Origin: Patescibacteria group bacterium
Lineage (GTDB): Bacteria; Patescibacteriota; Patescibacteriia; 2-01-FULL-39-33
Length of the DNA stretch: 64,000 nucleotides
Direction: 5' to 3'
Assembly: GCA_041649575.1 (NCBI GenBank)
Contig: JBAZMW010000001.1
Location: 154,711 to 218,710 of the forward strand
Below the pieces are notes generated by a model. It saw only the letters and a program-made list of their open reading frames with translations. It did not search any database and was not told the origin of the DNA. Both the position numbers and the translations under genes were made by a program. Of the stretch, positions 3,612-61,413 are shown one piece after another; the first letter of the stretch is position 1, and every line of letters begins with the position of its first letter.

Positions 3612-5738
3612 TTAATTCGCGGCATATTCAAAATTATTATTTTTTTCGATAAAGCTGGTGGTAAAAACATTGGTGGTTAGCGCCAGTATTTCGGCCTGGC
3701 CATCACTGTCAATGTCGCTCGCCAGCGGCTTGACGCCTTCGCGTTTTTGCGGATTGTAGGCCAGCCAAGAATTTAACAACCTGCCTTGCTGATTGAAAAT
3801 TTTTATCTCCGGGCTACCGCCGAATCCAGGACCGGTGATGATCTCGTCTTGGCCGTCGCCGTTAACATCGCCGCAAGCGACATTGACGCCGCCGGCAAAT
3901 TTTTTATCGTAAGCGAAGAAACCCATTGACAATAGTTTACCACGATTATCAAAGATTTTCACATGAGGCCCGCCAGGACTGGAGGCGCCAACAACAATTT
4001 CGCTCTGGCCGTCGCCGTTAACATCGCCAGCAGCTACATTAACTCCCATTTTAGTCCAAGCTTTATTATAGGCATAAAAGCTGGTTGGTTTTGTTTTCCC
4101 TTGCCAGTTGAAAATTTTGACCAAATTAGCGCCGCCGGTTTCCGGGCCAGTGATAATCTCTTGCCAGCCATCATTATCCAAATCGGCGACGGCCAGAGAT
4201 AGGCCGCCGGCAAACTTAGAGCCATAAGGATAAAATTCGGCAATATTCTCTTGAGCGCTGTTATAAATTGTTATTTTATTTTTGGCGGCTACCAAAAATT
4301 CTTTTTGACCGTCATTATTCAAATCGGTTTTGCTGATTTTATTGCCTCCCAGAAACAGTGAAACATAAGCAAAGAAGCCATTTCTCACGGTGTGTCCATA
4401 AGCATTAAAAGGTCTGGCAAAAGAACCATTAGCAAAAACGCCATCTTCGATTTCCGCTAGCGGTCTCAAAAGAATGACGCCATCGCCGGCTTCCAGCGAT
4501 AGTTTATCAAGACGCGAGCCATTGTTTATTTCTGGGTCTTGGATGCCGTGTATTTTCTCGTATTCCGAGTCAAAGCTGACGGTTTGTTTTTTGTCGGTTG
4601 AATTTACAATAGCCACGCCGTTGGCAAAATCTCTTTGCCACAAGCCGGGCTGGAGATTATTGTTCGAAGTCAGGAGGTTTTTAGGAGAGGATTTGGCCGG
4701 ACCTAAGTTGACGTCATATTCGTCGTACCACCAAAAGTGCTCTCTTAGCTGGGTTCCAAAATTAAAACCATAATAGCCATTATAGAGCAGAGCACTGGCC
4801 AGTCCAAAGCGCATCAACTGGTAATTGGTACGATTGCCGGTATTATCGGTGTCAACGTTGATAATATTTAGACGCGGCAGATAGCCAGAATTATTGGTAT
4901 CGCGGTAGCGTTTCATCGAGCCATCCCAGCCACCTTCCCAATATTCGGGAAAACCTTCAAACATCCGGCCATTAAGATCCAAGTATGGGCCGTCGCCATT
5001 GCCGACAATCAGATATTTATCGCCAAATTTGTTTCTTAGATTTTTAAACAGATTTTTATAACCTTCTTGCCAAAGACGATCGATTTTTTCGGCGGAATCC
5101 AGATAACCGTCAGCGTCAATATCGATGCGCGAATTAACCCAGGAGACGTTTTGCCAGACATTGTCGAGCAGCAAGCCGTCCCAAAGGCCGGTGGCCAGCA
5201 CTTTATTCTGATAGAAGTCGGCTAAATAATCGGCATAAGACTTTCCGAGCCGGTTTTTGACATAAAGATTCATGGAAATATTGCCCGGCCAGAAAGAGAT
5301 ATTTTCTCCAGCCACGGTTTTCAATTGCCAGCGGGGGTCGCTCTCCTTGGCCAAGGTGTGCCACAGGCCAGCGCCTTGCGGCTCAACCACTGATAGCCTT
5401 TCGAGCGGGATTTCGTTGGCGGAAGTATAGGCCAAAATAACAATCCTGGGGTTTAGTTTCCTGATTAGTTTGATTTCTTGCTGACTAGTGCTTTGAGCCT
5501 GCATATCCAGAGCCAACAGATCATAAGCAGCCAGCTTAACAGCCTCTTCTTGAGTGATTGGAGTTTTCCAATATAAATTGACGGTACGAGGAAAGTTATA
5601 ACTAAGCAAATCGACAGCTAAAAGCGACTTAAGCGGCAGAAGAATGGCGCTGAAAAAAGCCGCTAAAATCAAACTGCCGGCCAGAATTTTTTGCCAAAGC
5701 TTTATTTGCAAGTTGGTTTTGGGAAACAAAACAAACAT
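3612..5738 (-). CDS. Membrane-anchored protein with a glycoside-hydrolase-like (TIM-barrel GHL-type) central domain and C-terminal FG-GAP/VCBS repeats
   Basis: N-terminal TM segment. C-terminal repeats DLDNDGWQEIITGPETGG..KIF, GDVNGDGQSEIVVGASSPGGPHVKIF and GDVNGDGQDEIITGPGFGGSPEIKIF are typical FG-GAP. The GH-like assignment for the middle domain is weaker. Confidence 0.55.
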   Translation of the reverse strand: MFVLFPKTNLQIKLWQKILAGSLILAAFFSAILLPLKSLLAVDLLSYNFPRTVNLYWKTPITQEEAVKLAAYDLLALDMQAQSTSQQEIKLIRKLNPRIVILAYTSANEIPLERLSVVEPQGAGLWHTLAKESDPRWQLKTVAGENISFWPGNISMNLYVKNRLGKSYADYLADFYQNKVLATGLWDGLLLDNVWQNVSWVNSRIDIDADGYLDSAEKIDRLWQEGYKNLFKNLRNKFGDKYLIVGNGDGPYLDLNGRMFEGFPEYWEGGWDGSMKRYRDTNNSGYLPRLNIINVDTDNTGNRTNYQLMRFGLASALLYNGYYGFNFGTQLREHFWWYDEYDVNLGPAKSSPKNLLTSNNNLQPGLWQRDFANGVAIVNSTDKKQTVSFDSEYEKIHGIQDPEINNGSRLDKLSLEAGDGVILLRPLAEIEDGVFANGSFARPFNAYGHTVRNGFFAYVSLFLGGNKISKTDLNNDGQKEFLVAAKNKITIYNSAQENIAEFYPYGSKFAGGLSLAVADLDNDGWQEIITGPETGGANLVKIFNWQGKTKPTSFYAYNKAWTKMGVNVAAGDVNGDGQSEIVVGASSPGGPHVKIFDNRGKLLSMGFFAYDKKFAGGVNVACGDVNGDGQDEIITGPGFGGSPEIKIFNQQGRLLNSWLAYNPQKREGVKPLASDIDSDGQAEILALTTNVFTTSFIEKNNNFEYAAN

Positions 5739-9233: not shown

Positions 9234-9395
9234 ATTTGTTTAAATTTGGCTATTTTTTATAATTGTTTATTAACATCATAGATTATCATATTTTTTATAA
9301 AATGTCAAACATAGCCCTGTTCGATGGCCCAACGCTATTAGACAATAAAGCCATAAGCGATTATAATATTTATATCCGGCGTTGCCAATAAAAAT

Positions 9396-10850: not shown

Positions 10851-11049
10851 CGCTTTTCTTTTCTAGAAAAGAAAAGCGCACGCAAAAGAAAAGTCGCGAG
10901 CTAACATGAAAAATTTTGCGTTTCAGACAAAATTCTAACAAAATTTTTAAATTCCCCGCTCAGGCGCTGACGCGCTGAGCGGGTCAAACAGTAAAAATTT
11001 AGTAACGAATTTTGCCTTCACTTTTTTCAAAATTTTTCATAGGCTCGCA
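10851..11049. mobile_element. MITE-like dispersed repeat, copy 1. A 28-bp perfect palindrome CGCTTTTCTTTTCTAGAAAAGAAAAGCG (10851-10878) is followed by a ~155-bp element with imperfect terminal inverted repeats (GCGAGCTAACATGAAAAATTTT ... AAAATTTTTCATAGGCTCGC).
   Basis: About 75-80% identical to 61235..61413. Copy 1 carries an extra internal hairpin (CCGCTCAGGCGCTGACGCGCTGAGCGG). Confidence 0.55.
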
Positions 11050-11074: not shown

Positions 11075-12205
11075 ATGAAGTATTTAGAATTAAGGAATAG
11101 GATTGAAAATTTTACCAAGTATCCAAAAACTCAAAAGATCTCTCGCTCCCTCATTGTTAACAAGGGATTTCATGGTAATTTTAATATTAGTTTTGGCGAA
11201 GCGCCGTTCCTTGAAAAGTTTGGAAATTATTTGGACAATTCAGAAGCGTATAATTTTTCCACCATTCAGCAAGTTATAAGGGTAAATGATTTTAGAGACG
11301 ACTTGGACTCAACACATCTCTTACTGTTTGATATGGCAGATGTTTCTGGTTTTATTGGTGGAAAAAATGTTTCAGATGATGAAAGAAAAAATATTGCCAG
11401 TTTTACCATCAGAAAAACATTTGAGTTTTTAATTAATGAGTTGAAACTAAAGCCGGAACGTTTCAAGATTTCGTATTTGACCGGAGGAAATGTTGAAGTA
11501 TTGACAGCTGGAAAATATAAATTTGATAAATATGTTGAAGGCGACTCTTTTATAAAAACTGCAAAAGAATTTGGTATTTGTGATGAACAATTTATCCCCG
11601 ACCAGACAAGAACAACTCTGCTAGCATTGAATTTTCAGCCACCAGTTTGTTGGGGTTATCGCAATGAAATTTTATATCAAACTGACAGCCCGAGCGAATT
11701 ATTAGATATTGCTTCTATCGAAAACTTACTTTGGCGGCCGGTGTTTAAAAATGGAATCATAGCCGATCTGGCTAGATGGGAAAATTTTTGGTCTTTTCAG
11801 GTTGTGGGTGTAGAAAGGTTATTAATGCTGATAAATAATTCGGACAAAGTTTATGCGGCTGATCATATTATGCCACTTATCACTAAATTTTCAGAAGTGA
11901 CAAATAGTTTGGATATCCATGTTTGCCGTATTACAATGGAGCTGCTACGAGTTTTCCATAGAATTGTAGCTGATATGGAAGGTTTTTCAATATTGTCCAG
12001 CTCGAGAAAAGAAAAGCTCATACCATATCGTAGAAAATTTTTACAAAATTGTGAAAAATTAGGCTTTGACTATAAAACAAATTTAAAAGAATTATTGACT
12101 CTTAACGGCAAATTGCAGCCATGTTATCCTGAACTCCTTTCGGGCACTGAAGCTAAAACTAATAAAATAATAGAATGGTTGAGAAAAGGAAAGATATATA
12201 CTTAA
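11075..12205 (+). CDS. Hypothetical protein (377 aa) inserted between mraY and murD
   Basis: Host-like AT-rich ORF. I placed the start at ATG 11075 because the track's upstream extension overlaps the repeat element. No recognisable motif. Confidence 0.45.
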   Translation: MKYLELRNRIENFTKYPKTQKISRSLIVNKGFHGNFNISFGEAPFLEKFGNYLDNSEAYNFSTIQQVIRVNDFRDDLDSTHLLLFDMADVSGFIGGKNVSDDERKNIASFTIRKTFEFLINELKLKPERFKISYLTGGNVEVLTAGKYKFDKYVEGDSFIKTAKEFGICDEQFIPDQTRTTLLALNFQPPVCWGYRNEILYQTDSPSELLDIASIENLLWRPVFKNGIIADLARWENFWSFQVVGVERLLMLINNSDKVYAADHIMPLITKFSEVTNSLDIHVCRITMELLRVFHRIVADMEGFSILSSSRKEKLIPYRRKFLQNCEKLGFDYKTNLKELLTLNGKLQPCYPELLSGTEAKTNKIIEWLRKGKIYT

Positions 12206-13611
12206 AAAATAAAAAAGTGACAGTCATGGGGCTGGGTTTATATGAAAATGGTAGCGGAATTTCGGCTACCCGTTTTTTGGTGGAGCAGGGCGCTCGGGTG
12301 ACAGTGACCGATTTAAAGACCAGGGAACAACTGACTGATCAGGTAAAGCGACTGGGGTCGTTGGCTAGGAAAATAAAATTTGTTTTAGGTGAACATCGAG
12401 AGGAGGATTTTAAAAATATTGATTTACTTGTAAAAAATCCAGGCGTGCCCAACATTTCAAAATATTTGCGAATCGCTCGAGAAAATAAGATTCCCATTGA
12501 GACGGATATCTCTTTGTTTTTTAAGCTGGTGCCGCGAGAAAGAATTATTGGCATCACCGGCACGCGCGGTAAAAGCACCACCACCAGTTTGATCTATGAA
12601 ATAGTAAAACTGGCCGACAAAAACGCGGTTTTGGGCGGCAATATCACCAAGTCGCCGCTGGCGCAGATGATGGAAGTAAAAAAGGGAGGCATGGTAGTGC
12701 TGGAGTTGTCTTCTTGGATGCTGGAAAGCTTAGAACCGCACAAAATGAGTCCGCAGCTGGCCATTTTTACCAATATTTACCCAGATCATTTAAATACTTA
12801 CAAAAATATTGCCGAGTACGCGGCAGCCAAAGAAAATATTTTCCAGTGGCAGAACAAAGATGATTTAGTGGTGCTAAACCGCGATAATAGCTGGACCAGA
12901 AAAATGGGCGCTAAAGTTCCAGGCAAAAGGTTTTGGTTTTCCAAAAAATATTTTGCGGCAGAAAACGGAGTTTATTTGAAAGGAAAAGATGTCTATTTTC
13001 GGCTCGCTGGCGAGGAAATAAAAGTCTTAAAAAAAGATGACATTCAAATTCTCGGTGAACATAATTTGGAAAATGTTTTGGCGGCGGTAGCCGCCGCTAT
13101 GGCCTGGGGAATCAGGCCGGAAACTGTCAGGCGAGGTGTAAAAAGCTTCAAAGGCATTAGCGATCGGCTGGAATTTTTGAGAGAAATAAAAGGGGTAAAA
13201 TATTATAATGATACCACCTCGACCACGCCAGAAGCGACGATGGCGGCCCTAAGGGCCTTAAGTTTAAAACCAAAAAGTAAAAGCTTAAAAGAAAAAAATA
13301 TTATTTTGATAGGTGGAGGGTCGGATAAAGGGTTGAATTTTAAAGAATTGGCCAGGGAGATAAGAGATAGAGTAAAAAATTTAGTTTTATTAAGGGGAAG
13401 TGGCAGTGAAAGACTGGCTAAAGAATTTTTAGCTTTAAGTTTTAAGTTTTCAGTTGTTGGCTCTATGGCTGATGCGGTTGGTTTGGCTAAAAGTTTTGCC
13501 AAGAGGGGAGATATTGTTTTGCTTTCTCCCGCCTGCGCTTCTTTTGGCATGTTTAATAATGAGCTTGATCGTGGCGCGCAGTTTAGGATGATAGTTAGGA
13601 AGTTAAAGTGA
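12175..13611 (+). CDS. murD: UDP-N-acetylmuramoylalanine--D-glutamate ligase MurD
   Basis: KKVTVMGLGL N-terminus, P-loop GITGTRGKSTTTSLIYEI, Mur ligase C-terminal region. Confidence 0.85.
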   Translation: MVEKRKDIYLKNKKVTVMGLGLYENGSGISATRFLVEQGARVTVTDLKTREQLTDQVKRLGSLARKIKFVLGEHREEDFKNIDLLVKNPGVPNISKYLRIARENKIPIETDISLFFKLVPRERIIGITGTRGKSTTTSLIYEIVKLADKNAVLGGNITKSPLAQMMEVKKGGMVVLELSSWMLESLEPHKMSPQLAIFTNIYPDHLNTYKNIAEYAAAKENIFQWQNKDDLVVLNRDNSWTRKMGAKVPGKRFWFSKKYFAAENGVYLKGKDVYFRLAGEEIKVLKKDDIQILGEHNLENVLAAVAAAMAWGIRPETVRRGVKSFKGISDRLEFLREIKGVKYYNDTTSTTPEATMAALRALSLKPKSKSLKEKNIILIGGGSDKGLNFKELAREIRDRVKNLVLLRGSGSERLAKEFLALSFKFSVVGSMADAVGLAKSFAKRGDIVLLSPACASFGMFNNELDRGAQFRMIVRKLK

Positions 13612-13629
13612 TGGCTTCGGCGAGGCAGG

Positions 13630-13712
13630 CCCGCCTGCGCCAGTTTTGGCATGTTCAATAATGAGTTCGACCGAGGCGCGCAGTTTAGGATGATAATTGG
13701 TAAATTAAAATA
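13630..13712 (+). repeat. Tandem GC-shifted duplicate of the murD 3' end, encoding ACASFGMFNNEFDRGAQFRMIIGKLK* (murD itself ends ACASFGMFNNELDRGAQFRMIVRKLK*)
   Basis: Direct comparison of 13530-13611 with 13630-13712: the same peptide with mostly synonymous, GC-increasing substitutions. The spurious minus-strand ORF 13203..13736 shows the same duplication. Confidence 0.7.
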
Positions 13713-13736
13713 AAAAAAATACGGCGGCGAGGACAC

Positions 13737-14100
13737 TTGCGTATCACTCGCCGCGCTCTAGGTCACGGACTGCGTTCACGATTGACCCCACGGACATGGG
13801 ATCGTGCTCCTGGGGGGCCGTCCCACAAAGCACGGCGGTTACCGGGGGCCGCGCGTCGCGTCCGCGACTGCACAGAGGCCTTTATGGAAGGCCCGGCGTC
13901 CGCGGTCTACGTCCGCAGGACGTGTCGCCGGTGCCCGTCGATGGCCGCGCCCGTCGCGCTTGTGCTCGGAAACAGATTCGAATTCGATATGGACAATGCG
14001 AGATGGGTGCCTTTTCGGTGCTGAATGTGCATAGTGCGTGTTCCTCCTTGTTTGTTCCATTGAACCTCTTCCAGATTGAAACTATGTAAGGCCATATTAG
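13737..14100. other. GC-rich (about 65%) structured ~360-bp islet of unknown nature between murD and ftsW; candidate ncRNA or foreign remnant. Best ORF candidate is a 41-aa minus-strand ORF (14032..13907) with SD AAGGAGG.
   Basis: Many stable hairpins (GCGGCGAG..CTCGCCGC; GGCCTTtatggAAGGCC; GTCGCGtccGCGAC). Every longer ORF is Arg-rich, i.e. non-coding-like. Confidence 0.3.
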
Positions 14101-14224
14101 CATATTAGTAAATTTTTGTCAATAATTAATTAAATAAAAAAATAAAAAATATTAATTTTTTGTTTAAATTTAGACAAAAATAATTGTTCGAAAATTATTA
14201 AAATAAATAGCCAAAGATCAAATC

Positions 14225-15370
14225 ATGAAAATAAAGGTCAGGGAATTATTAAGAGAAATCATAAAAGGCAAAAAAGATCAGCCGCCGGATTGGTATTTGG
14301 TGGGGCTGATTGTCTTTTTGACGGTTTTTGGCCTGATTATGCTGTCATCGGCCGGAGCGGCCGTTGGCTGGCAGAAATTCGGCGACAGTTACTGGCACGT
14401 TAAACACCAAATTCTTTTCGGCTTATTGCCGGGACTGGTTTTGTTTTTTATTTTTTCGCGGCTGGATTATCACCGACTGAAAAGCCTGGCCTCGCCCATG
14501 CTTTTTATTTCTTTGATTTTATTAGTTTTGGTGTTTGTGCCTGGCATTGGCGCCAGCTGGGGCACCTCAAAAAGCTGGATCAATTTTTTTGGTTTTTCGC
14601 TCCAGCCGTCAGAAATCGTCAAGCTCACTTATTTGATTTATCTGGTTTCTTGGCTGGCGGCCAAGGAAGAAAGACATTTAAAAAACTTGCAGCAGGGTTT
14701 TTTGCCGTTTTTGTTTGTTTTGGGTATAATCACCATTCTGATGGTTTTGCAACCGGACACGGGCACCATGCTGATCATTGTTCTGACTTCGCTGATCGTT
14801 TATTTTGTGGCGGGCGGCAGTTTTTGGCACCTGTCGTGGCTGTCGGCGGTAGGTTTGGGCGGGCTGGCTTTGATTATCAAGATTTCTCCTTACCGCGCGG
14901 CGCGGCTGACGACCTTTTTGCATCCCGAGCTCGACCCGCAAGGCATCGGTTATCATATTAATCAGGCGCTCTTGGCGGTTGGCTCGGGTGGCTGGCTGGG
15001 CCGTGGGTTTGGCCATTCGCGGCAAAAGTTCGCTTACTTGCCGGAGGTGGCCGGCGATTCTGTTTTTGCCATTTTGGCGGAAGAACTGGGATTTTTCATC
15101 TCGGCGGCCGTGGTGGCGCTTTTCGTTTTTCTGGCTTTGAGAGTTTTGAAAATGGCCAAAAATTGCCGTGATCCGTTTGGCTCGCTCTTGGCGGTGGGAA
15201 TTATCGTCTGGTTTGTCATTCAGGCTTTCTTGAACATAGGAGCGATTATCGGCGTTCTGCCGCTGACCGGCGTGCCTTTGCCTTTTATTTCTTATGGCGG
15301 CACTTCGCTGATGATTTGCTTGGCCGCTTCGGGAATTTTGGTTAATATTTCAAGGCACAATAATAATTAA
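14225..15370 (+). CDS. ftsW: SEDS-family peptidoglycan glycosyltransferase FtsW/RodA
   Basis: 10-TM protein with conserved SEDS C-terminus (PLTGVPLPFISYGGTS); dcw context. Confidence 0.85.
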   Translation: MKIKVRELLREIIKGKKDQPPDWYLVGLIVFLTVFGLIMLSSAGAAVGWQKFGDSYWHVKHQILFGLLPGLVLFFIFSRLDYHRLKSLASPMLFISLILLVLVFVPGIGASWGTSKSWINFFGFSLQPSEIVKLTYLIYLVSWLAAKEERHLKNLQQGFLPFLFVLGIITILMVLQPDTGTMLIIVLTSLIVYFVAGGSFWHLSWLSAVGLGGLALIIKISPYRAARLTTFLHPELDPQGIGYHINQALLAVGSGGWLGRGFGHSRQKFAYLPEVAGDSVFAILAEELGFFISAAVVALFVFLALRVLKMAKNCRDPFGSLLAVGIIVWFVIQAFLNIGAIIGVLPLTGVPLPFISYGGTSLMICLAASGILVNISRHNNN

Positions 15371-42265: not shown

Positions 42266-42277
42266 ATAAAATTTTTA

Positions 42278-42325
42278 GACAAATTTAATACCGGAAAGTC
42301 GCTGGCGCAACCTTCCAGTATAGTG
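42278..42325. repeat. Direct repeat copy 1 (TTTAGACAAATTTAATACCGGARRGTCGCTKGCGCAACCYYCCRGTAT), hairpin-containing, immediately 3' of the minus-strand 122-aa gene
   Basis: Differs from 42782..42829 at 5 positions. Contains inverted TACCGG..CCGGTA arms and a TTGCGCAA palindrome. Confidence 0.7.
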
Positions 42326-42781: not shown

Positions 42782-42829
42782 ATATTTAGACAAATTTAAT
42801 ACCGGAGGGTCGCTTGCGCAACCTCCCGG
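42782..42829. repeat. Direct repeat copy 2, immediately 3' of the minus-strand 475-aa gene
   Basis: See copy 1. Preceded on the gene side by a second small hairpin ATCGCCgtcaGGCGAT. Confidence 0.7.
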
Positions 42830-42858
42830 TATGTTGATGTACGATCGCCTGACGGCGA

Positions 42859-44286
42859 TTAGTTGAGAGCGACTGCCTCCTGCCTGCCCTCGGTGCTCAG
42901 GACCACATGGTCCTCCTCGAGCCTTAGCACGGCGATGGCGGCGCTGCCCGCGCTCTCATAGGCGTGGTTCTCGTAGATCAGCCGCGGCTCCTGGCCCGGC
43001 ACCATGACATAGAGCTCATAGCGTAGTTGCGGGTCGGCGATGCGGTGATCGATCTGCTCCTCGGCCACGAAGACCGCCAGGCCCAGTCGCGCGCTTATGA
43101 TCCTGTGCCGTACCGACGGCGTGCGGTAGGACACTTGGCCGGGAGTCCCCATCGGCATCTGTATGACTACGCCGTACTTCTGATCCCCGTAGTCTTGGTA
43201 CATCTTTGGCTTCAGGCGCCAAGATGCCATCTTTTGCGCCAGGATCTGGGCGATCGCCGCGTCCACCTCGCCCTCAAAGGCGGCCTGCTCGGTCTCGTTG
43301 AGCTTGGGCGGACTCGGAGTCGCTTCAGTCGGCTCGAAGACAAACTCGGCGATGCGGTTGCCGTACTCCTCGTTGACGAGTTCGACGGTGATTTTCACCT
43401 GGCCGCCCCTTTCGTCAATTTGGATTTGCCCCAGGTCGTTGATGCACAAATCGTGCCGGTCGGCGCTACTGCTGTAGCGGTTGCGCCACTGCCATTCTTG
43501 CATCTGGTCTCGGCCGTGGTGGTAGATCACCACTTGATCGAAGTAGCCGATGCCGCCACTGCCACCCCACTCGCTTCGGGCTACCAGAAACACGGCCGTG
43601 TCGGGATCGAGCACCCTGACCTTCCCGATACTGCACCGCTCCATCTTCATCAACTCCTCAATGAACAACCGGAGCCGTGCCGACACTTCTTGCCCGCCGA
43701 GTACCTCGGCCAATGCCTCCTCATGACTCAACCGCGAGTCATCCTCCAGCAATGCTTTGACGCTGGCGGCGGCTTCGGCCAGCTCTTCCCGCTTCTGCTG
43801 GATTTGGCTGGCAAACTCTTCGCCACCGAGAAGAGCCAGCGCTTGGTGTGCGTCGGAGTAGGATTGCCGCCCGATCTCGTAAGTTTCCCGCGGGAAGTTG
43901 TCGGGGGGGAGCTCTTGTACCAAACTCCTGATGCCCAACTCATCGGTCAGGGCCAGGAACTTTTCCGTGAGCTTTCTTTCACAGCAACCACAACCATTCA
44001 TGGTCGGGTCGATTGCACTGAAGGCCTCGGCGATCGCCAGCCGGACCAGGGGATCGGGCTGGGCATTGATGGCCTTGACGATCCGCCCCCGTTCCTCGGC
44101 CGGCAATTCGCGGAGGCGTTGCACATACTTCCCGCCGCGCTGGCCATCGGCCATGGTCACAGGGATGCCGGTGACCTGCTGGGCAACTTGTAGGCAGACA
44201 GACAATTCCAACTGCCGCAGTTGTCGGCCAATCTCTTCCTCCACTTTCCGCGCTTCTTTCAGCGCTCTTTCTCTTTCCTTGTTCAT
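42859..44286 (-). CDS. GC-rich island gene 2, 475-aa hypothetical protein (no recognisable domain)
   Basis: SD GGAGGAGacaacaATG at 44286. The track's longer 509-aa version overlaps the upstream gene. Coiled-coil-like N-terminus (MNKERERALKEARKVEEEIGRQLRQL), a CGCC cluster, C-terminal beta-rich half. The antisense 388-aa ORF is Arg/Gly-rich and rejected. Confidence 0.6.
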   Translation of the reverse strand: MNKERERALKEARKVEEEIGRQLRQLELSVCLQVAQQVTGIPVTMADGQRGGKYVQRLRELPAEERGRIVKAINAQPDPLVRLAIAEAFSAIDPTMNGCGCCERKLTEKFLALTDELGIRSLVQELPPDNFPRETYEIGRQSYSDAHQALALLGGEEFASQIQQKREELAEAAASVKALLEDDSRLSHEEALAEVLGGQEVSARLRLFIEELMKMERCSIGKVRVLDPDTAVFLVARSEWGGSGGIGYFDQVVIYHHGRDQMQEWQWRNRYSSSADRHDLCINDLGQIQIDERGGQVKITVELVNEEYGNRIAEFVFEPTEATPSPPKLNETEQAAFEGEVDAAIAQILAQKMASWRLKPKMYQDYGDQKYGVVIQMPMGTPGQVSYRTPSVRHRIISARLGLAVFVAEEQIDHRIADPQLRYELYVMVPGQEPRLIYENHAYESAGSAAIAVLRLEEDHVVLSTEGRQEAVALN

Positions 44287-44308
44287 TGTTGTCTCCTCCG
44301 TTCGTCGC

Positions 44309-44606
44309 CTAGTGCGCGAACGCGTTGAGAAACTTTGCCAGCTCCCTCGGCTCTTTCTTGGAATGCCGAAGGAATCTGACGCACGCACCCACTAACTCTG
44401 CTCCGAAATTCTCTTCCCGGCAGGCGATAGCGTACCACCTGGCTGCCAGCGCCTTTTTGCGTTTGCCGGTCCTGGCTAGGACCAGATTATACGCCTTGGA
44501 AGGACTGGTAGCAGACTCGGTGAGGTTGAGCAGTTCGGGTACGGCCCAAACCGCCTTGGCGCGTGCCAATAACTCGATCAGACGCTTGACGTCTTTTGGT
44601 GTCATG
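44309..44606 (-). CDS. GC-rich island gene 3, 98-aa basic helical protein (possible small regulator/partner)
   Basis: SD AGGAAAGGAGcaagccATG; 20-bp gap to gene 2; a probable operon with it. Confidence 0.5.
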
Positions 44607-44773
44607 GCTTGCTCCTTTCCTCTGTAAGGTGCTATCAAGCTGATTGCCAGCTTAACTAATAATTATATCATATTATAACATAATTGTCAATGGTATTTTG
44701 TTATTTTATTTAAATTTAGCCAAAAATAATAAGTATTTTTGCCAAAAGTAGCAATTTGAATTAAAATATAGTT

Positions 44774-61234: not shown

Positions 61235-61413
61235 TTTTTCTTTTCTAGGAAAAGAAAAAGCTAACAAAAAGAAAAGTCGCGAGCTAGATGAAAATTTGGC
61301 GCTTCAAGTCAAAATCCTAACAAAATTTTATAACTCCTCGCTTCGCTCGTCAAACAGATGAAACTTAGTAACGAATTTTGACTTACGCTTATCCCAAATT
61401 TTCATAGGCTCGC
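61235..61413. mobile_element. MITE-like dispersed repeat, copy 2 (palindrome TTTTTCTTTTCTAGGAAAAGAAAAAG, then a TIR-bounded element GCGAGCTAGATGAAAATTT...AAATTTTCATAGGCTCGC)
   Basis: Aligns with 10851..11049 at about 75-80% identity and lacks that copy's internal hairpin. Confidence 0.55.

Follow-up and report, generated by a model that had tools for sequence, protein, structure and literature searches.

A recoded second end of murD, joined by a recurrent palindromic junction, in a Patescibacteria genome

We analysed a 64,000-nt stretch of DNA, here called the window, from the metagenome-assembled genome of a member of the Patescibacteria (Candidate Phyla Radiation; assembly GCA_041649575.1, contig JBAZMW010000001.1, positions 154,711 to 218,710). 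In the window, murD, the gene for UDP-N-acetylmuramoyl-L-alanine--D-glutamate ligase, is followed after 18 nt by a second, displaced copy of its own 3' end. The two ends encode nearly the same peptide in partly different codons, and the joint between them is an imperfect palindrome that recurs almost unchanged at duplicated ends of murD and of other genes in distant genomes. We tentatively favour the explanation that a gene-end replacement module of about 100 bp was inserted into murD at the sequence CCCGCCTGCG, and that a GC-rich islet downstream is a separate insertion.

Anatomy and authenticity of the duplicated murD end

The closest named homologues of the MurD encoded in the window come from Buchananbacteria and Falkowbacteria. 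The gene belongs to a division and cell wall (dcw) cluster comprising mraY, an open reading frame (ORF) of 376 aa, murD, ftsW, murG, murC and murB. The features that make up the duplication are the following.

12175 to 13611, plus strand: murD (ORF; Mur ligase Pfam domains on the 100%-identical protein cluster P0001)
13528 to 13611, plus strand: copy 1, the in-frame functional murD 3' end, 27 codons and TGA (repeat search and alignment)
13612 to 13629, plus strand: spacer TGGCTTCGGCGAGGCAGG, 18 nt, 72% GC, six codons in frame, the conserved linker of the junction
13612 to 13642: imperfect palindrome TGGC-TTC-GGCG(A)GG-CAGG-CCCGCC-TGC-GCCA (read from the sequence)
13630 to 13713, plus strand: copy 2, the displaced murD 3' end, 27 codons and TAA, without a start codon of its own (repeat search and alignment)

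The start of murD is placed at 12226 by gene callers (461 aa) and at 12175 by NCBI (478 aa), and its C-terminus at 13611 reads ...PACASFGMFNNELDRGAQFRMIVRKLK, then TGA. Copy 1 opens with an 11-nt core, CCCGCCTGCGC, at 13528-13538; the identical core at 13630 opens copy 2, whose translation is PACASFGMFNNEFDRGAQFRMIIGKLK followed by a stop. The copies agree at 70 of 84 nt (83%), and the repeat search reports 85% identity over 80 nt with a period of 102 nt, so that copy 2 is in frame with copy 1. Eleven codons differ: seven synonymously (including Ser TCT vs AGT), three by replacement (L/F, V/I and R/G, copy 1 vs copy 2) and one at the stop (TGA vs TAA). The longest exact word common to both copies, read from the sequence, is 21 nt. 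Nothing besides the spacer lies between the two tails. In searches for extra copies and for an enzyme, which covered these 64 kb of the 245-kb contig, the pair is the sole repeat of its kind.

Aligning 13528-13611 with 13630-13713 therefore bears out the original prediction that a second murD 3' end starts 18 bp after the first and encodes a near-identical peptide (3 of 27 residues differ). A GC-rich islet does adjoin it, as had been proposed, at about 13720-14050 (62% GC with a peak of 73%, against 45% for the window). The second copy had also been described as far more GC-rich than the first, which is wrong: copy 1 has 45.2% GC and copy 2 has 44.0%, and high GC is confined to the spacer and the islet downstream.

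Because the genome was assembled from a metagenome and the divergence of the copies is of the order seen between strain or species variants, two variants of the murD end might have been joined head to tail during assembly. We regard such an artefact as very unlikely. The junction is base-identical in three assemblies produced by different pipelines: a 17.4-kb stretch of an ENA MEGAHIT contig spans it with 100% identity to the window, as does a 9.7-kb stretch of a Logan contig assembled from a single run (SRR8542065), and the 461-aa form of MurD (P0001) is recorded in JGI, ENA and Logan. The assemblers concerned use k-mers longer than 21 nt, and no longer word is common to both copies, so the de Bruijn graph is unambiguous there. 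Moreover, a like architecture and junction is found in unrelated samples and genomes.

Recurrence of the junction and conservation of the displaced copies

The palindrome is formed by the 18-nt spacer pairing with the first 12 nt of copy 2 (TGGCTTCGGCGAGGCAGG followed by CCCGCCTGCGCCA), and the general form of the junction is CTTCGGCG(N)GGCAGG followed by CCCGCCTGCG. We screened 80 MurD loci from GTDB species representatives for a second tail and found one tandem case (1/80), L052, in a metagenome-assembled genome of 62% GC whose MurD is 43% identical to that of the window. There murD ends in ...CGA-TAG, followed by GCTTCGGCGGGCAGG and then CCCGCCTGCGCC, with 15 nt between stop and core; linker and core together differ from those of the window by one base, and the displaced tail reads PACASFGLFVHEFDRGEQFNQCVKRLP, the in-frame one PACASFGLFLHEFDRGDQFNACVKQPR. 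Scanning metagenomes for TTCGGCGN{0,2}GGCAGGCCCGCCTGCG yielded 30 loci, one of which, L099, is a third murD case (MurD 37% identical to that of the window). Its TAG stop is followed by CTTCGGCGGGCAGG and the core, with 14 nt between stop and core, and a 23-nt insert breaks up its copy 2, which is out of frame.

The junction also occurs at genes other than murD. The 3' region of hsdS in L087, L098 and L100 carries an in-frame 63-nt unit without a stop codon (...PPASELLEKIKMEREG-LRRAG-PPASELLKKIRTEKE...), and in L104 and L106, two diverged orthologous loci, the 5' end of an opposite-strand metallo-beta-lactamase (MBL)-fold gene is duplicated, the displaced upstream copy retaining the initial ATG. 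The linker is common to the window, L052, L099, L087, L104 and L106, and in every duplicated case the duplication starts exactly at CCCGCCTGCG. At the outer pair of the palindrome, the window has U:A where L052 has A:U. A variant of the linker in L087 (CTTCGGCGTGCAGG followed by CACGCGATTGC, core CACGCG), which adjoins a displaced tail of a phospholipase D (PLD) gene, has an inner G:C pair replaced by U:A; its stem is changed on both sides, G to T being paired with C to A, and linker and core covary there.

The exact CCCGCCTGCG codons, for Pro-Ala-Cys-Ala, are present in 3 of about 46 readable MurD loci, one of which has the module; it is absent from all of the approximately 43 MurD loci with other codon choices. 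The junction motif (up to 3 mismatches) has a single match in the 64 kb of the window, at the junction itself, and occurs at one locus among the 80 MurD loci (about 560 kb). BLAST comparison with plasmids and phages gave only chance-level partial GC-rich matches, IMG/VR scans returned no contig with a murD tail, and a limited literature search found no description of the junction or of palindrome-joined recoded gene-end duplications.

These counts bear on whether a dedicated enzyme is needed at all. Homology-helped illegitimate recombination would join DNA of a related strain on the left by homology in or upstream of murD, and on the right by microhomology. The donor would have a REP-like or terminator hairpin immediately behind its murD stop, the 3' arm of which (CCCGCCTGCG) equals the PACA codons of the recipient, and the outcome would be the donor tail and hairpin arm followed by the recipient's own tail. 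This would explain protein-conserved, synonymously diverged tails from related lineages. The motif is also terminator-like after PEP-CTERM genes (L090) and is found, in GC-rich genomes, in arrays resembling repetitive extragenic palindromic (REP) elements. The TAG stop stands directly against the linker in L052 and L099, and REPs can abut or supply stop codons and sit inside ORFs (PMC3733652). We nevertheless consider this route unlikely. A murD hairpin without duplication was seen at 0 of the 80 GTDB loci, the duplication is present at each of the three murD loci with the hairpin, the motif does not occur in multiple copies in these genomes, and the same rare accident would have had to happen at least five times with an identical imperfect linker.

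We then compared the two copies of each pair by Nei-Gojobori counts, expressed as the proportions of nonsynonymous (pN) and synonymous (pS) differences.

Window: pN 0.084, pS 0.47
L052: pN 0.13, pS 1.05
L099: pN 0.14, pS 1.05
L087: pN 0.17, pS 0.95
L104: pN 0.05, pS 1.14

In L104, all codons outside the core and the initiator Met differ, yet 15 of 16 residues are retained, among them an Arg encoded by AGG in one copy and CGC in the other. When the 13 sense-codon differences of the window are all placed at random, none of 20,000 simulations gives as few as three replacements and no stop, and for the other pairs likewise none of 20,000 has so few replacements. Under a more lenient null, in which half of the differences arise synonymously in the working copy and the other half at random on the displaced copy, p is 0.13 for the window and 0.029, 0.20, 0.23, 0.00035 and 0.032 for the other pairs (Fisher combined approximately 6e-5). 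These ratios and simulations indicate that, for most of the time over which they diverged, the two tails of each pair served as working gene ends. In addition, residues peculiar to one lineage occur in both of its tails (AQFRM in the window, HEFDRG..QFN.CVK in L052, KNYKERG.LFK in L099), suggesting that the incoming tail came from a related lineage and not from a promiscuous distant donor.

The same data speak to an in-situ tandem duplication, by slippage or unequal crossing-over between the murD core and the same 10-11 nt in a hairpin shortly downstream, which would have doubled core, tail, stop and spacer before the copies drifted. Such an event would leave an exactly tandem repeat, here of 102-nt period, jointed at a 10-11-nt repeat. 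It would also fit the 8-nt CGGCGAGG found after both stop codons of the window, the linker-like GGCTTCGGAGGACAGG after copy 2 of L099 and the tandem core-flank-linker arrays of GC-rich genomes, and for the window alone the lenient null stands. The copies made by slippage start out identical, however, and the untranslated one should decay, whereas the displaced copies here are protein-conserved at saturating synonymous divergence and include two-step synonymous switches (Ser TCT/AGT in the window, Arg AGG/CGC in L104). The joint, moreover, is common to distant hosts, the linker being conserved base for base where MurD is only 32-43% identical. We judge this explanation improbable.

Very little probability attaches, in our estimate, to a function kept by the host, whether as an mRNA 3' hairpin or terminator derived from old PACA-SFG codons or through readthrough to an extended MurD. 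The frame of copy 1 continues into copy 2 in the window (18 nt) and L052 (15 nt), and also in hsdS, whose second copy really is translated; a short U-run follows the hairpin of the window (GCC AGU UUU GG after the stem). Against this, copy 2 of L099 is out of frame with its 23-nt insert, the stops differ (TGA in the window, TAG elsewhere), a terminator scan calls no site, and a terminator needs no 72 further protein-conserved nucleotides.

A proposed gene-end replacement module

The nearest relative (L113-L116) is fully syntenic, and its MurD is 70.7% identical to that of the window. There the stop of murD and the ATG of ftsW are only 8 nt apart, neither a second tail nor the islet is present, and the core reads CCGGCC instead of CCCGCC. 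The murD-ftsW interval of the window measures 614 nt, and the whole of it is an insertion relative to this relative. The neighbouring genes are 57-85% identical between the two genomes, so murD as a whole is not foreign, and replacement of the entire gene by a distant donor was rejected. Within the tails, copy 1 has Leu (NELDRG) where nearly all of 120 homologues have Phe (NEFDRG), which copy 2 retains, and the ending of copy 2, GGT AAA TTA AAA TAA, resembles the GGC AAA TTA AAA TAG of the relative. Copy 2 also contains one member of a short direct repeat.

13704 to 13714, plus strand: left 11-nt direct repeat ATTAAAATAAA, spanning the copy 2 stop (exact match)
14197 to 14207, plus strand: right 11-nt direct repeat ATTAAAATAAA, 17 nt before the ftsW ATG at 14225 (exact match)

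A match of 11 nt was reached in 13 of 2000 shuffles. The recurrence of ATTAAAATAAA just before ftsW ties copy 2 to the native murD-ftsW junction, and the 102-bp unit of core, tail 1, stop and spacer would accordingly be the incoming piece. As read from these sequences, the evidence points to copy 2 as the original tail.

We propose that this 102-bp unit (13528-13629), which comprises core, alternative murD tail, stop and GC-rich 18-nt spacer, inserted into murD at CCCGCCTGCG(C). The gene would thereby have received a new 3' end, protein-equivalent and derived from a related lineage, with the original end (copy 2, 13630-13713) pushed beyond the reach of the reading frame. The spacer, which would be the only conserved part of the unit, combines with the regenerated core into an imperfect palindrome of 24-30 nt. 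Folded as a hairpin in single-stranded DNA (ssDNA) or serving as a symmetric binding site, this palindrome may be recognised by an enzyme acting in trans, for which the 10-nt core would serve as crossover or target sequence. The enzyme could be of a hairpin-dependent ssDNA type, like those that handle REPs, IS200/IS605 ends, integron attC sites and the attP of CTX phage. Modules of this kind might be maintained as presence/absence polymorphisms that pass from one related genome to another; protein-level selection on both tails would then be accounted for. The islet would be a second insertion, at the murD stop codon, of a small orphan transcription unit that lies on the opposite strand between its own promoter and terminator. 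Of all this, the anatomy, the recurrence and the conservation pattern are observed, whereas an insertion in place of an in-situ duplication, the mobility and the part played by the palindrome are inferences.

A wider generalisation, which we offer with considerable doubt, is a class of gene-end swap modules of about 60-100 bp. Each would consist of a recoded end and a 14-18-nt linker that regenerates the palindrome at CCCGCCTGCG, would be mobilised in trans by a hairpin-recognising ssDNA recombinase, and would have both of its ends under protein-level selection.

Several observations weigh against the insertion of such a module. The predicted hairpins, at -12 to -19 kcal/mol, are no better than those of shuffled GC-rich sequence. 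The junction itself was the bait with which L099, L087, L104 and L106 were recovered, so only the window and L052 are unbiased. Many loci of the junction scan are tandem REP-like arrays in GC-rich genomes (L083, L093, L094, L102, L105, L107 and L111), and others are plain coding sequence (L092/L109 and L091/L096). In L090, at 1884-1930 and 2945-2990, the same palindrome family, as GCTTCGGCGGGGCAGGCCCGCCTGCG and then TTTTGCTTTT, follows two paralogous PEP-CTERM genes and, by its sequence, looks like ordinary intrinsic terminators. The CGGCGAGG octamer after both stops hints that the repeat unit runs past the stop, as in a simple tandem duplication, and the lenient null, with p = 0.13, is not rejected by the window on its own. 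GC content at third codon positions (GC3), which samples about 20 codons per copy, makes copy 2 and not copy 1 look foreign in L052 (copy 2 0.35, copy 1 0.65, gene body 0.77); in L099 copy 1 is the lower (0.40 vs 0.57). The nearest MurD available for comparison is 70% identical, with no module-free sibling genome. No recombinase, integrase, transposase or HUH transposase domain is recorded from about 9.3 kb upstream to 8 kb downstream, and no recombinase is common to the other junction-bearing loci. Finally, a double-stranded circle of 60-100 bp is an implausible substrate for classical integrases, which makes the mechanism speculative.

Integrative elements that enter gene 3' ends and carry a replacement end are well known, e14 and phage 21 in icd of Escherichia coli being examples. 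The murD locus resembles them in its short identical core, in a protein-equivalent, synonymously diverged duplicate, in the displacement of the old end, untranslated, and in the intact gene that results. It differs in having no integrase and no cargo, only 14-18 nt between the copies and a unit of 63-102 bp, and in that one junction palindrome serves murD, hsdS and an MBL-fold gene. Of the features that define an integrative element with a duplicated attachment (att) site at a gene end, the identical core and the recoded, protein-equivalent end are present, and element DNA (cargo or integrase) between the copies and an adjacent recombinase are absent.

The original prediction took the duplication for the scar of a larger, integrase-bearing element whose surviving cargo is the islet. 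Part of this stands, namely the att-like anatomy of identical core and recoded tail, its recurrence at murD in two distant genomes, and the 614-nt insertion. The islet is moreover compositionally foreign, two more GC-rich units with a like promoter and box lie in the window, and the linker variant of L087 stands beside a defence-gene island with no partner copy within 12.7 kb. Other parts do not hold. With only 18 nt between the copies, an element bounded by them carries no cargo, and the islet, flanked by an 11-nt direct repeat of its own, is not enclosed by the att-like copies. The distance from stop to core is 14-18 nt in all three murD cases, and identical deletions in distant lineages are implausible. 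No integrase is recorded over about 9 kb upstream or 8 kb downstream, no second murD tail was found within 3 kb downstream at the 79 other loci, and IMG/VR yielded nothing. A remnant of this sort seems to us a rather poor prospect.

The proposed module can also be set beside smaller or non-autonomous elements. Cis-mobilizable elements (CIMEs) are flanked by attL and attR, lack recombination genes and are mobilised in trans; they are kilobases long and derive from known families of integrative and conjugative or integrative and mobilizable elements. They share att-like ends without a recombinase of their own with the murD unit, which differs in that the whole of it measures about 100 bp, and we know of no cognate element for it. 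REPs and bacterial interspersed mosaic elements (BIMEs), with the REP-associated tyrosine transposases (RAYTs, of the HUH type), offer another comparison (PMC3733652). A GC-rich imperfect palindrome of 24-30 nt at a stop codon or within an ORF is common to both, as are tandem arrays in GC-rich metagenomic contigs; here, in place of many dispersed copies, there is a single one in the 64-kb window. Of the REP tag GTAG/CGTC, GTAG precedes the linker only in L099, the window having GTGATGG. No RAYT gene was seen in the window, and no genome-wide search for one was made. To our knowledge, REPs have not been described with recoded duplications of the neighbouring gene end.

The variable and template repeats of diversity-generating retroelements resemble the locus in the direct repeat of a gene 3' end just downstream and in GC-rich, hairpin-prone sequence after the stop, and differ in that the target here is a housekeeping ligase. 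This candidate was rejected, as the differences are not adenine-specific (A at 6 of about 15 differing positions in copy 2 and at 1 in copy 1) and no reverse transcriptase domain is recorded among the neighbouring genes.

The GC-rich islet and the neighbouring genes

The islet unit (13715-14196) lies downstream of copy 2, outside the murD repeat, and is bracketed by the 11-nt repeat ATTAAAATAAA. Its features are given below.

13720 to 14050, minus strand: GC-rich islet, orphan sequence
13712 to 13755, minus strand: terminator-like hairpin, stem 13755-13747 / 13732-13722, then U8 at 13719-13712 (putative, from sequence and fold; missed by a simple scan)
13907 to 14095, minus strand: 62-aa ORF, the sole gene called in the islet
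14094 to 14122, minus strand: sigma-70-like promoter TTGACA-17-TAATAT with extended TG (10 of 12 consensus positions)
14154 to 14178, plus strand: box AATTTTTTGTTTAAATTTAGACAAA, an imperfect palindrome 96% identical to 2294-2318

The predicted transcript would run on the minus strand from about 14087 to 13712, some 375 nt. A promoter-like site facing ftsW, TAGACA-16-AATTAT (14171-14198), overlaps the box at 14154-14178. Having its own 11-nt repeat and its own minus-strand promoter and terminator, the islet looks like a separate insertion, and its former interpretation as leftover cargo of the element at murD is not upheld.

As to what it encodes, a small RNA is favoured over a micro-protein because there is no coding signal. 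A coding gene or pseudogene was rejected, as none of the six frames has a GC3 bias. The ORFs have no Pfam, PHROG or PADLOC match, and the 62-aa ORF, in which an internal AAGGAGG-N10-ATG would yield 41 aa, has no homologue among 5.8 billion proteins. Known RNAs were rejected as well: 13000-14600 matches no Rfam family at E <= 1 and neither a tRNA nor a tmRNA was found there, the window as a whole containing only three tRNAs and the L10 leader at Rfam gathering thresholds. The fold z-scores of the islet are only -2.7 (minus strand) and -2.0 (plus strand), and neither blastn nor tblastx finds similarity between it and the rest of the window or any fetched locus.

The other two GC-rich units, at 1-2100 and 42859-44638, are likewise on the minus strand and have 58-63% GC in a genome of 45%. 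A lipoprotein gene with 282-nt tandem repeats makes up one; the other consists of two orphan genes of 509 aa and 109 aa without Pfam, PHROG or PADLOC matches. Both have a near-consensus TTGACA-17-TAnAAT promoter, read from the sequence, and a neighbouring box TTTGTTTAAATTTAGAYAAA, and they were probably acquired horizontally. Given the like promoter and box, the islet is probably one of several such units.

The imperfect palindrome TTTGTTTAAATTTAGACAAA, or its half ATTTAGACAAA, occurs at 2294-2318, 9235-9261, 14154-14178, 42273-42283, 42784-42794 and 44714-44724. ATTTAGACAAA has 11 matches with at most 1 mismatch, against 2.6 expected, and is found beside each GC-rich unit. It may mark a cassette boundary, but it occurs also at ordinary intergenic sites, which makes a host promoter or operator motif more likely. 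Between cysS and the GC-rich unit, an orphan minus-strand gene of 122 aa is enclosed by two 51-nt direct repeats (42271-42321 and 42782-42832; 88% identical), each with a hairpin. From the sequence, this layout looks like cassettes stacked behind repeated terminators. In L052, a segment of about 200 nt with a very stable fold (4437-4640, z -5.1), closed by an inverted repeat, GGACGTACGCGTTTGGTGT / ACACTCAAACGCGGAAGTCC, comes right after the displaced tail. Homology between it and the islet was rejected, scattered GC-rich patches being all that they share and blastn finding nothing.

All Pfam families on the genes called between 4226 and 21611 are cell-envelope, dcw-cluster or housekeeping families. 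The 376-aa ORF between mraY and murD (11075-12205, plus strand; 397 aa from a TTG at 11012) is absent from the syntenic relative. A profile search against the PDB gives E = 4.5e-13, the AF2 model has a pLDDT of 95.7, and Foldseek aligns it with a TM of about 0.75 to catalytic fragments of alanyl-tRNA synthetase (AlaRS). About 123 representatives make up its family, which no Pfam model matches at threshold. By this modelling we identify the ORF product as a stand-alone paralogue of the catalytic domain of AlaRS, and it was on that ground rejected as the responsible enzyme. Located in a peptidoglycan cluster, such an AlaRS-like ligase may have the peptide stem or the cross-bridge as its substrate.

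Upstream of murD, at 10866-11036, there is a conserved element of about 170 nt that does not code for protein, with a second copy 50 kb away at 61249-61402 (75-82% identical) and a counterpart in the same place in the relative (L113, 2780-2960). No Rfam family matches it, and it may act as a leader or small RNA.

Metagenomes commonly contain 3' fragments (65-84 aa) of PLD/Nuc (HKD) nuclease genes that have been displaced (L087, minus strand, about 12200-12749; L117-L121). They stand directly beside type I restriction-modification or defence islands, which suggests a recurrent integration site for islands. The PLD tail of L087, with its linker variant CTTCGGCGTGCAGG, is near iteron-like GTCCGAGTA repeats; it was rejected as an occupied site, there being no partner copy over the 12.7 kb mentioned above. 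Other displaced PLD tails next to type I restriction-modification islands have junctions without the linker.

If the duplication proves to be only slippage at a terminator hairpin, the finding is an ordinary one. If the module reading is true, an insertion process with a footprint of about 100 bp can target essential, highly conserved genes of uncultivated bacteria and leaves the gene working via a recoded end. It would then represent either site-specific integration in a new, minimal form or a previously unseen activity of REP-like hairpins, and it would provide a compact natural 10-nt target and palindromic joint that are suited to in vitro testing. Units of this kind are pseudo-duplicated gene ends, which annotation pipelines and strain-resolved assemblers may misread, and their recoded pairs form a built-in record of recombination between diverged lineages.

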